Source of the DNA: Octopus sinensis
Lineage: Eukaryota
DNA length: 64,000 nucleotides
Assembly (NCBI RefSeq): GCF_006345805.1
Contig: NC_042997.1
Span: 151,962,001-152,026,000, forward strand
Direction of reading: 5' to 3'
Position 1 is the stretch's first letter, and each line of letters opens with the position of its first letter. The translations under genes and the position numbers were made by a program. The notes beneath the pieces were generated by a model. It was not told the origin of the DNA, made no database searches, and saw only the letters and a program-made list of their open reading frames with translations. Of the stretch, positions 15,909-56,143 are shown in pieces.

Positions 15909-15989
15909 ACTTGTTTTATATATTTGACTGCGGCTTTGCTGGGGCACCACCATTTAAAATGATGGAGTTCAACTGTATCGAAAAGATTA
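15909..15989 (-). mobile_element. SINE family A 3' tail fused downstream of the 7SL-like sequence
   Basis: Minus strand ggtggtgccccagcaaagccgcagtcaaatatataaaacaag vs family A end ggcggtgctccagcatggccgcagtcaaatgactgaaacaag (41626-41667). Confidence 0.75.
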
Positions 15990-16217
15990 CCAGTGGACGA
16001 CTATTCATAGGTGCGATTTTACCAGCTACTTTTCCGCCTTGGGCCGAATCGATCCTGCTTAGACAACCTGGTCCTGATAAGCACCATATAGATGCCGAGC
16101 TTAGCGCGGACACATCCGATCGCCAAAGAAAACCGACTGCCGGGATTCCCATCCTCAAACCGGCCAACCAACCAAGCCTCAGAGTAGCTGGATTACAGGA
16201 TCACTCCACAACTCCCC
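15990..16217 (-). ncRNA. 7SL (SRP) RNA-derived sequence with internal deletions (pseudogene or SINE head)
   Basis: Minus strand: cctgtaatccagctactctgaggct ... gcgatcggatgtgtccgcgctaagctcggcatctatatggtg ... accaggttgtctaagcaggatcgattcggcccaaggcggaaaagtagctggtaaaa ... atcgcacctatgaatag. Colinear with metazoan 7SL (CCTGTAGTCCCAGCTACTC; CCGATCGGGTGTCCGCACTAAGTTCGGCATCAATATGGTG; CCAGGTTGCCTAAGGAGG; GGCCCAGGTCGGAAACGGAGCAGGTCAAAA; ATCGCGCCTGTGAATAG). Confidence 0.9.
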
Positions 16218-16240
16218 TGTATATATATATATATATATTA

Positions 16241-16398: not shown

Positions 16399-18547
16399 CG
16401 TCTGTGTGTGTGTGTGCAAATGTGTATGTGTCTGTGTCTGTGTGTGTGTTTGTGTGTGTTTGCATGTGTGTAACAAATAGGTAAACTGTCGCGTAGATCC
16501 TGTGAAATATTGAGTAGTCTGAATCCTATCCCTCAAGTGTTAGATATACTTAACGTTTCCTCGTGACCCATAAGTTAATTGGCAGATTAGTATTAAATAC
16601 GCGCACACTTTCGCGCGCGCGCACGGATACACACAAACACACGGACGTAAACAAACACACAAGTATATACACACATACAGCCACCAACGTGCAACAACAC
16701 TTGTCTGCGTATGGTGGGGACAAATACATTCGACAGTTAGCAATTAAGTAATTATAAAAGATAACAACTATAAAAAACACTCCCTTTGAGGAAGAATTTT
16801 ATTTGATATGACATAAAGACTTCAATGTGAAATTTATGGGAAACAAATAATTTTAGGTAGTAATTTAAGCATTTTTAATTCACTGACTTCTACTTAACTG
16901 TATTTGACACATCAAAACTACCTAACTATATTAATGACATTATCACGTTACGGTTTTGTATACGCAGCGTGTCTTTCCATAGCTATAAACACCCTTATAT
17001 AAAATTTATCATATTTACAGACGTATCAGAACAGAATCTAACTTGCTTGTATGGACTCGCTGAAAAAAAAAAACTATGTTAGTTTAATACACATTCATAA
17101 ACAGTATTTCGCACTTCTATGAATGCACCTACCCGCTCATCACATCTTCTGTTTATTCATCTAATCAAATAGAAAAATAGAGAATCGATTGAAACTGCTA
17201 TCAGTCCATTACCATTCAGAGATAAAAACGAGAGCTTCATGACATCAATTATCTTGTGTGATTGTTTTCTTTAAATTACTCGCTTATTAGAAAGATTATC
17301 TCGGAAAGTGGGGTTATAACGTACTTAGGTACTTAGCAGAAGTTATTGCTGCTGAAAGGTTTTGTATGGACGCCTATTTGCTTCGTTGCTATCCCAGTTT
17401 TCTATAATGAAAGAAAATCATTCGCTAGAAATGATATAGGAAAAGATAGGAAAAGTAATGATGAAGGCGAGAAACTGAACATTAGCGCCAAGATTTCTCT
17501 CCTTTATCAAGTTTTCGTTGAAATGTTATCACTGACTTTGATTTGCGATAAAATAGTAGTGGTGACAGCAATAATAACTACAACAACAATATCTCAACAT
17601 TTATAATCCAATAATATATATATTAGCGAGTAATAATTACAGAACGTCGTTTTTCGACTTTGATAGCAAATTGGTTACTTCAGTGAAGAACTACAATAAT
17701 CTTGAAAGCCAAATTCTTAAATTGGAGATTTTGCAAAGAAGAAAATATATTGGTATATGTAAATGGCATATGGCAAACAGCTTAGCTAGCCCTATCGTTT
17801 CGTGATAAAGAAAACATTTCGCTTTGTCACTAAACAACAGAAGTGGGAGATAATTAACTAGCGAAAGAAACGAAATAAAAAAAAAAGTAGTCACCGAGTT
17901 TATCTAGGTTTTAGGCAATACTGATTGTTAAACCTACAATCATGACAAAACAAAACTAATAAGGAAATCATCACTTCCTGCAGTAATTTTAGAACTAATC
18001 TTCTAATCTCTTCTCATAATCAATATTCCTTCATACTGACTTATAAAGCAAAATTTAATTTCATAGTTTGGCACAAATATCACAAATTTCAGGGCTATAT
18101 TCGTTTGAATAAACCCTACCATATTTGATCGACCTTGAAGCACAGCATTTTCTGCTAAAGTAATTTTTGCAGATTAACTTTCTAATCTCTCTTGGAGTTT
18201 GGAAGATTAAACAAAGTTAACCCTGCTGAGATTCCACCTTACACTGTTAAGCAACATTAATAAATAATGTATAGCATGCATTACATTTCCTAACTAAAAT
18301 ATTGAGCAAGAGAACCTTTATGCAGTCTTGAAATATCGCCCTAAATCACACCTCACCTTGAATAAGCAAAGTTTACCAACTACTAAAAGGTGGGTTAATC
18401 ACGGATGGAATGCTTTTAATCAAAGGTTTTCTGTCAGAGTTGCCCACCAAAATAACAGTTTTAATATAGTAAATTTTTTTTTCTGTATTTTTGTTAAAAG
18501 TTAATTCACTGTTCTGACAGCAATTTATCAACCATGCTTGAACAGGT

Positions 18548-18680
18548 TTGGTTGTGTGGTAAGAAGCTTGCTTCCCAACCCACCGGATTCAATCCAACTG
18601 AGTGGCACCTTGGGCAAATGTCCTTGGGCTGACCAAAGCTTGTGAGTAGATTTGGCAGACGGACACTGACAGAAAATCTT

Positions 18681-18711
<31 letters not shown>

Positions 18712-18922
18712 TTGTACCTGCGATTGTCCTCCCACCCACCGCCTGACAACCGGTGTAGGTGTGTTTATGTCCCTGTAACTAGCGGCTAGGAAAAAGAGAT
18801 CGATAGAATAAGTACCAGACTTTTAAAAAATATAGGTACCAGAGTCGATGCATTCGACTAAAAATTCTTCAAGGCAGTGCCCCAGCATGGCTGCAGTCTA
18901 ATGACTGAAACAACCAAAAGAT
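18548..18922 (+). mobile_element. SINE family A
   Basis: tgtgtggtaagaagcttgcttcccaacc head, ggcaccttgggcaa CORE-like box, internal (TG)n, 3' end gtgccccagcatggctgcagtctaatgactgaaac. Confidence 0.88.
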
Positions 18923-25089: not shown

Positions 25090-26029
25090 CGTGTGTACAT
25101 GTACATATATATATATATATTTATACATACATACATACATACATATTCACCATAAACACACACACGCATATATGTGTATACATACATGAAGGAGCGGACA
25201 AACGAAAGACAACGGTATTCAGCATATTTGGTGGGAATTTCATGTATTATTTAATAATTGCGAATCCATGCGACTTAATGTTTCGTACTCTCGTAAAACA
25301 AAGCTAGCTTTTTGAGCTTCTAGAAATCGAATAACATTATAAGCAAATTCAAGCTGGCTTCTAGATGTTAAGCCATGTTCATCTCGGGTCACATGTTTTG
25401 GAAGTGACATCTGTTCTCATCTTTCTTCTTTGATCCACGTTGTCAAACAGGGTGTTTGTATGTAGTTGTAGCTCCTATATTTGAAAACTGCGGTATGGTT
25501 TATTTAGCGACATCGGTTCATTGCATTTGCCGCAACACTTAGCAGAGCGGATTGCTGTCGTAAATTAGTGAAGAACTTACACAATAACTGCGACATCCTT
25601 TTCGCATGAGTAACCAAATTTACTGCTTTTGGATAAAAACTGTGCATTGCTACGATAACTGACAACATAAATGTGACTGTAGTCTGTATGGGCACCATGA
25701 ATGTTTTAGTACTATGCCTTTGAGTAATGGGGTAGGAAAACCTAAGGTGGTGTATGTGGATAATCGGTTGCTAGTGCTTGAAGTCCATTAAAATTGCGTA
25801 CCACTGGTGGCAAAAATAAGATAATTCATTCTTTTTTTTGGTGGATACTGCACGGGTTACCGGTGTACATGCAAATTTTTTGCGAAGATATTCATGCACA
25901 GAACATTGCCCCTCGGAGATCTCTGCCCATGTCTTTTCTACAGCTAGTGGCCTGCAACAGTTGAAATAGCACTAGTCTTGGACGAACTTTTTGTGTTATA
26001 TCCTATCCTACATACTAAGCAATAAACAC

Positions 26030-26520
26030 ACACACATGCACAATGGATTCGGACGAAAATTTCAAATTAAAGGAGTACTGGCGTAACTTCACGATCGCAA
26101 CGTGCCTGTCAATCATCCTCGTTACTCTTAAAGGCACGAAAAACGAAACTCTCATCACATGCTGGAAGAAGGTGCGGCCAGAGTGTGTCCAGGACTATGA
26201 GGGCTTCTCACCTGAAGATATTCATCACGAGGCTGTCAAGAATGCAGTGAAACTGGCAAAGGTACTTGGTGGCGAAGGCTTTGACGACATCACGCAAGAT
26301 GAGGTCAACGACCTCATCGATGCCCACTCTGAAACACTGTCAGACGAAGATTTGTTGGAGTTAAGTAAGTCTGCCAGCAAAGAGAAGGAGGAAGCGCCAG
26401 ATCCAGAGGAAGAGGAAGTTGAGGTGGGCCTGGCAATCGAACTTCTATACACCTTTTAAAAATAGCAGAGGGATTGCAAGGGAAGGCGGAAGCAGGGGAT
26501 CCCTATATAGTTCGGTCTCT
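26030..26520 (+). pseudogene. Tigger/pogo (TIGD1-like) transposase C-terminal fragment
   Basis: LKEYWRNFTIATCLSII...TLITCWKKVRPECVQDYEGF...VKLAKVLGGEGFDDITQDEVNDLIDAHSETLSDEDLLEL matches the post-DDE region of Tigger1-like proteins. 5' truncated. Confidence 0.85.
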
Positions 26521-41598: not shown

Positions 41599-41842
41599 TT
41601 ACTCTTTTACTCTTTTACTCTTTTACTTGTTTCAGTCATTTGACTGCGGCCATGCTGGAGCACCGCCTTTAGTCGAACAAATCGACCCCGGGATTTATTC
41701 TTTGTAAGCCCAGTACTTATTCTATCGGTCTCTTTTTGGCGAACCGCTAAGTGACGGGGACGTAAACACACCAGCATCGGTTGTCAAGCAATGCTAGGGG
41801 GACAAAACACAGACACACAAACACACACATACATATATATAT

Positions 41843-41888
<46 letters not shown>

Positions 41889-42038
41889 GACAGGCTTCTT
41901 TCAGTTTCCGTCTACCAAATCCACTCACAAGGCATTGGTTGGCCCGGGGCTATAGCAGAAGACACTTGCCCAAGGTGCCACGCAGTGGGACTGAACCCGG
42001 AACCATGAGGTTGGTTAGCAAGCTACTTACCACACAGC
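41599..42038 (-). mobile_element. SINE family A, best-preserved copy, with (AAAAGAGT)n tail
   Basis: Head gctgtgtggtaagtagcttgctaaccaacc...ggttccgggttcagtccc, CORE-like ggcaccttgggcaagtgtcttc, internal (TA)n/(TG)n, end gactgaaacaagtaaaagagtaaaagagt. Confidence 0.92.
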
Positions 42039-54691: not shown

Positions 54692-54853
54692 ATGTACATT
54701 CTTTACATTATTTACATTATTTACACTCGACGGACATTTGTTCTAATCTTGTTTGTTGTTATCACAATTTTTCGGCTGATATATCCTCCAGCCTTCTTCA
54801 GGTGGCTTGGGGAAATTTCGAACCTGGATTCTCATTCCTAAAGTATTTTTCGA

Positions 54854-54855
<2 letters not shown>
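54692..54855 (-). mobile_element. Hammerhead-bearing repeat, left copy (ribozyme 54763-54804)
   Basis: Minus strand cac-CTGAAGA-a-ggctg(gaggatatat)cagcc-GAAA-aATT-gtg. Inverted homolog of 55078-55232. Confidence 0.75.
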
Positions 54856-54913
<58 letters not shown>

Positions 54914-54929
54914 TCTTATTATTATGCCC

Positions 54930-55021
54930 ATGGGCATATTGCGTAGTAGTTAAGAGTGCGGGCTACTAAACCCAGGATTCCGAGTTCCATTCCAAACAGT
55001 GACCTGAACAATAACAATAAC

Positions 55022-55055
<34 letters not shown>

Positions 55056-55075
55056 TAATAATAATAATAATAATA
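54930..55075 (+). mobile_element. Short tRNA-derived SINE with (AAT)n tail
   Basis: gcgtagtagttaagagtgcgggctactaaacccaggattccgagttccattcc has A/B boxes in tRNA spacing and is followed by (aat)n. Confidence 0.7.
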
Positions 55076-55077
55076 AC

Positions 55078-55232
55078 ATCGAAAAATACCTTAGGAATGA
55101 GAACCCAGGTTCGAAATGTCCCCAATACACCCGAAGAAGGCTGGAGGATATATCAGCCGAAACGTTGTTCTAACAACAAACAAGATGAGTACATATATCC
55201 GTCGAATGTAAATAACGTAAATAATGTAAATA
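55078..55232 (+). mobile_element. Hammerhead-bearing repeat, right copy (ribozyme 55127-55170)
   Basis: acac-CCGAAGA-a-ggctg(gaggatatat)cagcc-GAAA-cGTT-gt; palindromic aacgtt; ends in (aatgtaaat)n. Confidence 0.75.
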
Positions 55233-56143
55233 TTGTTAGGTAATTCCATATATACATGTATGTGTGTGTGTGTGTGTGTGTGTATGTGTGTGTGCGTTTG
55301 GCAGTGAACTTAGGCATGTAGTTCTACTTTGTTTATGTTTAGGTATTGTTCATTGGGCTGGACCAATGCAATAGTAACCCTTTCACATAAAAACATTAAA
55401 TGCTGCTTCAAATGTTCAAAGATAAATCAATGAACACGCGAAGCAGAGATGAGGGAGACAGGCACAAAGTTATCAATAGTCTAATCGCTCTAGCAAATTA
55501 TCCTGGATGACATCTGCAAGAAATACAGTAACAAGTATCTAGCTAGGGGCTTTAGTTTCTTACATATCATTTTAGTTTCTGAAAAACAAATCGCCTTCAG
55601 TGTTGCTACATCGTTTCTTCCTGTACCCAGCTTGTAGGAACATCAATTGTGTTCACTTTCTGCCTTCCTCTACATTTCTTTCCCTTCGGTTTTCCAGTTA
55701 TCGCGAAGTATTTAAAGAAATAAGTCATAATTATTTTACATCATAACACACCAAATGAAAATAATGGATTGGATGATGTGGTTCAAGATAAACGTTTATT
55801 CTAGTTGACCACCTAATGTATAAAAAATGGTGTTTATGTTTACCTCGAAAATTGAATGAAGCCAATTTTCTTTATTAGATGTTGCTGTTATCCTTCTTGA
55901 TGTTGTTTTACTTCGCGTCAGCTCTGATGAAGCAAAAATATTCCAGACATGACTAACTCGTCTCTATTTGTTTTAGAGGCAAAATATATCTAAGACTACA
56001 TTAGTCAATGTATTTTTAAACGACATAATATGATGGTAGAGGTATTTGGTTACTATTTCTAGTGCGTCGAAAGTGCACATAAAAGCCCCCTCGTTTGCTT
56101 AGCATACTGTTGCTAATGTTGATGTTCTTGTTCTTTATACCTA

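Follow-up and report, generated by a model that had tools for sequence, protein, structure and literature searches.

A 7SL RNA copy joined to a SINE-type 3' tail in Octopus sinensis: one of dozens of small-RNA chimeras rather than a SINE family

The window analysed here, a 64,000-nt stretch of the Octopus sinensis genome, contains on its minus strand a 7SL (SRP) RNA-like sequence that runs into the 3' tail of a SINE, which raises the question of whether an invertebrate carries a 7SL-derived SINE of the kind represented by Alu. The sequence-only reading had proposed either a 7SL-headed SINE family or a one-off template-switch chimera. Coordinates of the locus and of two comparison copies are collected in Table 1.

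Table 1. Features of the 7SL/tail locus and comparison copies (window coordinates).
Feature	Position	Strand	Basis
Decayed full-length 7SL (SRP) RNA retrocopy, corresponding to gene L003 positions 4-298, 88% identity	15957..16216	-	Rfam match and alignment to gene
Site of 12-nt deletion, tip of helix 6 removed, flanked by 3-nt direct repeats	16082..16083	-	alignment to L003
Site of 25-nt deletion, strand after helix 8 removed	16017..16018	-	alignment to L003
Helix 8 GAAA loop, kept	16031..16034	-	sequence and alignment
T4 run at 7SL 3' end	15956..15959	-	sequence; gene-like copies have T6 to T15
Type-A retroposon 3' tail, 46 nt (~45), starting 13 nt before conserved core	15909..15954	-	alignment
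Tail hairpin 1, common to tails A, B and C	15931..15952	-	fold
Tail hairpin 2, 3' arm decayed in window copy	15917..15930	-	fold
(TA)n tract, 5' flank of window 7SL copy	16220..16238	.	sequence
Near full-length SINE A with the same tail; comparison copy outside the locus	41607..42038	-	alignment
Older SINE-A-like comparison copy, related tail at end	18542..18921	+	alignment

The proposed homology to 7SL on the minus strand was confirmed with the Rfam model Metazoa_SRP, which matched from model position 1 to 299 at 54.9 bits (E 4e-13, 701 nt searched), a significant match whose score nevertheless lies under the gathering score of 70; an Rfam scan of the entire window at gathering level gave no match. 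With the genome's own 7SL gene (L003) as reference, the 7SL part extends over about 260 nt rather than the ~230 nt first estimated, and it reaches gene position 298 before four T's and then the tail, so that the tail has not replaced the 7SL 3' end and oligo-T as had been supposed. The element is a complete 7SL copy plus a tail, not a 7SL 'head'. Relative to L003, the copy has a 2-nt insertion and both deletions noticed earlier, one of 12 nt that removes the tip of helix 6 and one of 25 nt immediately following helix 8; helix 8 with its GAAA loop is kept as described. The 25-nt deletion is private to this copy among 50 aligned 7SL copies, while a 19-mer across the helix-6 deletion junction occurs once genome-wide, at the window locus. 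In the alignment, the same 12-nt deletion is also found in L037, but without the 25-nt deletion and without a tail, and is taken as a recurrence between short repeats. The tail is of the SINE-A type, as recognized before, with 80% identity to a young copy at 41625-41670 and 78% to 18877-18913. No target site duplication (TSD) was found at the locus, in agreement with the earlier observation, and its 5' flank lacks the upstream element known from the 7SL genes. Single-strand folding did not separate the window copy from the gene (z 0.17 and -1.19). Judged by its sequence, with two deletions, 88% identity and no upstream element, the copy would not qualify as a functional 7SL gene; it is probably silent, as it lacks that element, has only T4 at the join and carries a broken S domain.

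Elsewhere in the window, the repeat search was dominated by microsatellites. A pair of 182-nt inverted arms (54696-55236), 90% complementary and 177 nt apart, is MITE-like, and the translation of an open stretch at 26019-26456 (+) is similar to the end of a Tigger/pogo transposase.

A search of the whole genome (2.72 Gb) with the complete element returned 44 matches (87 candidates, 40 scored), of which the best non-self match had 75% identity and did not rank above plain 7SL genes. The exact 7SL 3'-end motif occurs 28 times genome-wide and the 5' motif 33 times, and exact tail matches number 59,196 (tail A), 7,647 (tail B) and 1,557 (tail C), the latter two being sister tails of A; these exact-pattern counts are lower bounds, as old copies escape, and an Alu-like family would be expected to yield thousands of exact matches. 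The stand-alone retroposons that carry the tails thus far outnumber the chimeras, and such an excess is a criterion given in PMC4494074, by whose tests for telling a SINE family from a sum of chimeras the locus falls among the chimeras. The locus is not a SINE family, and the window copy is single and has never multiplied; with a single-copy deletion junction, no sibling above plain genes and 7SL ends counted in tens, the first of the two proposals fails.

Fifty 7SL loci, pooled from several genome searches, were aligned. Eleven of them are gene-like, all located on C5 at 115-125 Mb with T6-T15 after the 7SL end, and eight of these have a common upstream element found in no other copy; the cluster at C5:115.3-125.3 Mb includes L003-L005, L007, L008, L011, L016-L018 and L027. 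Among the 39 non-gene copies, 35 are followed by a same-strand retroposon piece starting within 45 nt, and all dispersed copies with an intact 3' end (33/33) are joined in this way, compared with 0/11 of the gene-like copies, a zero that is partly circular because gene-like status was judged in part by the T-tract. A retroposon piece was present in only 143-281 of 4108 control windows (3.5-6.8%). Three of the 35 joined copies matched library entries cut from themselves, these entries belonging to families with many other copies. The whole-element query carried the tail and could favour tailed copies, whereas the 7SL 3'-end motif search is blind to it; nine of the 28 matches of that search are gene-like, and the other 19 are all joined. 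Of the 33, nine are joined to tail A, seven to tail B, five to tail C, two to tail D, one to a longer SINE-A end and nine to a whole or nearly whole SINE. Four further loci came from the 5'-motif search. In one, 7SL 11-120 is joined to tail B; in another, 7SL 1-56 precedes a LINE-B end of 300 nt; a third has a 7SL without ~124-205 on a whole SINE, and the downstream sequence of the fourth lies outside the partner library. The most Alu-like structure seen is a single 7SL copy (L254:473-1139) without ~124-205, that is, much of the S domain, on a whole SINE A. In addition, most dispersed copies have variants seldom seen in the present gene-like copies, for example at positions 56 and 283, which implies older or unassembled 7SL source genes.

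Whether these joins arose separately was addressed with a tree of 42 7SL parts, from which L043 and L041 were left out as too short. The tree is mostly unresolved; tail labels change almost as often as they occur (rows/changes: A 8/8, C 5/5, whole SINE 9/8, B 7/6), the gene label alone clusters, and one branch with 99/95 support unites gene L016 with chimeras of tail B (three), tail C (two), tail A (one) and a whole SINE (one). The linkers between head and tail also vary among copies, several being A-rich, and because the labels are unclustered and the linkers differ, the chimeras are regarded as independent. Heads that trace to genes and partners that vary point the same way. A-rich linkers, some with interspersed G, stand at the 7SL 3' ends of L019, L024, L026, L034 and L039; they would fit adenylated RNA ends and possibly record RNA 3' tailing. 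Head identity and partner identity are correlated (Spearman 0.50, p 0.005; 30 loci after exclusion of three self matches), with the exception of L026, in which a young 7SL (97.6%) is followed by an A-rich linker and an old SINE piece (73.6%) and which may be a two-step case. A TSD search on the chimeras found repeats of at least 7 nt in 4/32, compared with 9.9% of swapped pairs, and hence no excess.

Similar joins involve other small RNAs. U6 gave 48 matches, of which 27 were examined, the remaining 21 being tandem-array members or a duplicate; 19 of the 27 are joined to the same kinds of partner as 7SL, a count in which two copies matched library entries cut from themselves and two represent one duplicated event. 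The tandem array consists of ~20 near-identical U6 copies spaced 1.1-2.5 kb apart at C1:141.93-141.95 Mb (L060-L078). Among the U2 matches, 10/48 have the same partners, and nearly all of the other 38 run into downstream sequence common to gene-like copies. Dispersed U2 copies L135, L136, L140 and L141 retain a short 3' extension of the kind that follows U2 genes, succeeded in L140 and L141 by a SINE or tail, which suggests that precursor RNAs served as templates. In one U6 chimera (L123), the insertion flanks are reverse complements of each other over ~20 nt. The window locus is therefore one of dozens of independent small-RNA hybrids in this genome, each with a small RNA 5' and a retroposon 3' end joined directly on the same strand; the earlier idea of a template-switch chimera is supported, but neither its being a one-off nor a chance juxtaposition of pseudogene and SINE, since like joins occur by the dozen, with different tails and also with U6 and U2.

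The position at which the tails begin is nearly constant. The junction was mapped in 32 of 35 short-tail chimeras, and in 29 of the 32 the tail starts 13-15 nt ahead of the conserved core, at a point 1-4 nt outside the foot of hairpin 1; this holds for each of the three tails and each of the three heads. These chimeras had been picked as short, so that shortness was selected but tight clustering was not, and adenines at the join may lengthen the distance by 1-3 nt. Unselected tail copies behave similarly: at most 20 nt precede the core in 14/30 and 11/20 tail-B copies and in 12/30 tail-C copies, while only two of these 80 copies, all drawn from the start of contig C1, have 21-100 nt. Such tail-only insertions (25/50 for tail B, 12/30 for tail C; L165-L224, L233-L252) give a strongly bimodal truncation profile for these LINEs. 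One U6-tail chimera was found among the first 30 unselected tail-B copies, and Rfam, applied to 40 tail loci (20 chosen for a short tail and 20 without selection), recognised a single U6 head (L193), its other matches being microsatellite noise, so that most tail-only insertions are without a recognisable RNA head. Behind a SINE at L108:2800-3150, at least five tail-A units follow one another head to tail, each starting at the hairpin foot; this arrangement may reflect either template jumps in series or a tandem duplication.

Tails A, B and C have a common two-hairpin fold, with compensatory change in 3/13 pairs of an eight-sequence alignment; hairpin 2 is broken in the window copy. Unselected tail-B and tail-C copies often continue upstream into a LINE that codes for an APE endonuclease (PF14529) and a reverse transcriptase (RT; PF00078) in an ORF ending ~35 nt before the tail core, as would be expected of a LINE of the CR1/L2 group. 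Full-length relatives of the LINE protein are near 1000 aa; the best named relative is from Argonauta hians (58%), and identity to an unlabelled family that may, from its motifs, be CR1-like is ~28-33%. A CR1-Zenon label, likewise suggested by motifs, was dropped; in cephalopods, this clade is reported to be reduced or lacking (PMC10294476). Among 39 copies, there was no LINE ending in tail A, and none of the 20 RT matches examined among the best 150 ended in tail A, B or C. Most of the best 150 open-frame RT matches sit on unplaced contigs and may be young arrays or foreign DNA, and two ORFs upstream of a LINE-C copy (L225:2568-4366) look like those of a hAT-type transposase. The earlier view of the tail as a site recognised by a LINE finds support in the sister tails B and C, and for tail A we infer that a B/C-like LINE mobilises both SINE A and its tail. 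Tail B also terminates a second, short SINE (L167, ~190 nt before the tail), which accounts for five or six of the first 30 tail-B copies. ARAGORN found no tRNA within the window and the SINE heads in L142, L167 and L113 received no tRNA score from Rfam; a tRNA-headed SINE, suggested by eye only, is not claimed.

Considering these observations, the window locus is likely a dead-on-arrival chimeric retrocopy, produced in one reverse-transcription event by a template jump under a tail-dependent LINE. A LINE protein able to start only on its own kind of 3' tail would have begun target-primed reverse transcription on the RNA of SINE A or of a related LINE, copied ~45 nt spanning both tail hairpins and stopped just past the foot of hairpin 1; with whole-SINE partners, the stop would instead fall at the 5' end of the SINE RNA. 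It would then have jumped to the free 3' end of 7SL RNA, an abundant small RNA, and copied it to the 7SL 5' end, leaving a copy without the upstream element of the gene cluster that later decayed and did not multiply. Against this reading stand the lack of a TSD marking head and tail as one insertion and, among the 39 copies, of a LINE ending in tail A. The missing TSD would also suit a history in two steps, in which an ordinary 7SL retrocopy was later hit by a truncated SINE inserting at its T-rich end by target preference; tails are abundant enough for this, as the exact tail-A matches show, and L026 fits it. Two steps are nevertheless very unlikely, as all 33 joins have the same orientation against the low background in control windows, gene-like copies escaped despite their longer T-tracts, U2 ends and internal 7SL fragments without T-tracts were joined as well, and the ages of head and partner correlate. 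Membership in a 7SL-derived SINE (SINE1) family spread as a unit can hardly be credited. The 5' part is indeed 7SL-derived, a Pol III head with a LINE-type tail has the layout of a SINE, tail A recurs in nine of the 33 chimeras, and fewer than four T's at the join in 13/33 make read-through possible. Many copies with a common junction are lacking, however, as seen in the unique deletion junction and the 28 and 33 exact 7SL ends; internal deletions are small and vary between copies, with no common central deletion leaving the Alu domain; the 7SL tree is not ordered by tail, and no pair has diagnostic common changes beyond those that old copies have across tail types. Moreover, the duplicated chimeras (L079/L080, L114/L115; compared by eye) have the same flanks. 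The SINE1 reading of the locus is largely refuted by these points.

A template jump and a joining of RNAs before copying would leave the same DNA. If a ~50-nt tail RNA were cut at the hairpin-1 foot and ligated to small RNAs, or served as their donor, before or during reverse transcription, the near-constant junction in 29/32 short-tail chimeras with three tails, the commonness of tail-only insertions (14/30 and 11/20 for tail B, 12/30 for tail C) and the head-to-tail repeats of the tail alone in L108 would be expected. It counts against joining, however, that 7SL, U2 (also in a form with a 3' extension) and internal pieces of 7SL all serve as acceptors, as their ends are chemically unlike that of U6. 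Whole SINEs also serve as partners, the variable untemplated linkers suit a jump, and a polymerase halting at the hairpin would account for the fixed point just as an RNA cut does. RNA ligation is one of two routes proposed for U6/L1 (PMC11838501); for the octopus chimeras we consider it unlikely, and the template jump under a tail-dependent LINE is preferred. Within either scheme, the ~50-nt double-hairpin tail might act as a discrete adaptor, a cut or RT stop at the fixed hairpin-foot point giving a short product that licenses any abundant RNA for insertion. This is put forward tentatively, as a possibility less likely than not. If true, it would account for the ~40-50% of tail-only insertions of tails B and C and for the tailing of every intact dispersed 7SL copy, and the genome would amount to a nursery of SINEs where 7SL received a working tail at least 35 times, in some cases without a T4 stop, and yet no Alu-like family arose.

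The claim of an invertebrate Alu analogue fails, and a chimera phenomenon of vertebrates is extended to a mollusc and to 7SL. In SINE1-1_EBu of hagfish (2363 copies, said to have been born as a 7SL/retroposon-tail chimera; PMC7245038), as in Alu, B1, Tu and Urop, 7SL sequence stands 5' of a retroposon-derived tail (PMC7245038, PMC13023118), as it does here. These families, however, have thousands of copies, TSDs and one common ~183-nt central deletion leaving the Alu domain (PMC7245038, PMC13023118), whereas the window locus occurs once, retains the larger part of the S domain and bears deletions of its own. Marsupial P7SL_MD resembles it in consisting of full-length 7SL retrocopies, but these are poly(A)-tailed and number more than 12,000, compared with structured tails and tens of copies in octopus (PMC7245038). 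The proposed first step of SINE birth, in which a Pol III RNA gains a LINE tail, was repeated many times in one genome, which suggests that the rarity of 7SL SINEs does not stem from tail gain; the steps that come after it (central deletion, independence from the upstream element, terminator loss) are likelier to be limiting.

Among chimeras proper, human U6/L1 are known and 7SL/L1 are known but rare, with the same orientation and single-event origin as here; L1, by contrast, has no need of a structured tail and makes TSDs, and its chimeras are a small minority, unlike the 33/33 intact dispersed 7SL copies of octopus (PMC11838501). Mollusc sources (PMC4758252, PMC11481361, PMC10294476) served as background only, and a literature search, with most subscription papers outside its scope, returned no report of such cephalopod chimeras or of the fixed breakpoint, which offers a sharp, testable handle on template release by a tail-dependent reverse transcriptase. 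By analogy, the window locus seems to work like, and is best filed with, the chimeric pseudogenes of platypus (U6-L2, U6-Mon-1) and Anolis (U6 with L2, RTE and AnolisSINE2), for which template switching under a stringent LINE has been invoked (Doucet et al. 2015, PMC4476161). There, as in octopus, a small RNA stands 5' of a short LINE or SINE piece, several partner families occur per genome, and, as in platypus (40/47 analysed), nearly all non-gene copies are chimeric (PMC4476161). The octopus case differs in its invertebrate host, in 7SL and U2 heads besides U6, in heads that are mostly full-length, where the platypus U6 parts are almost all 5'-truncated, in the lack of a TSD excess, and in a breakpoint fixed at nucleotide level at the tail hairpin, which the section on chimeras in PMC4476161 does not describe.
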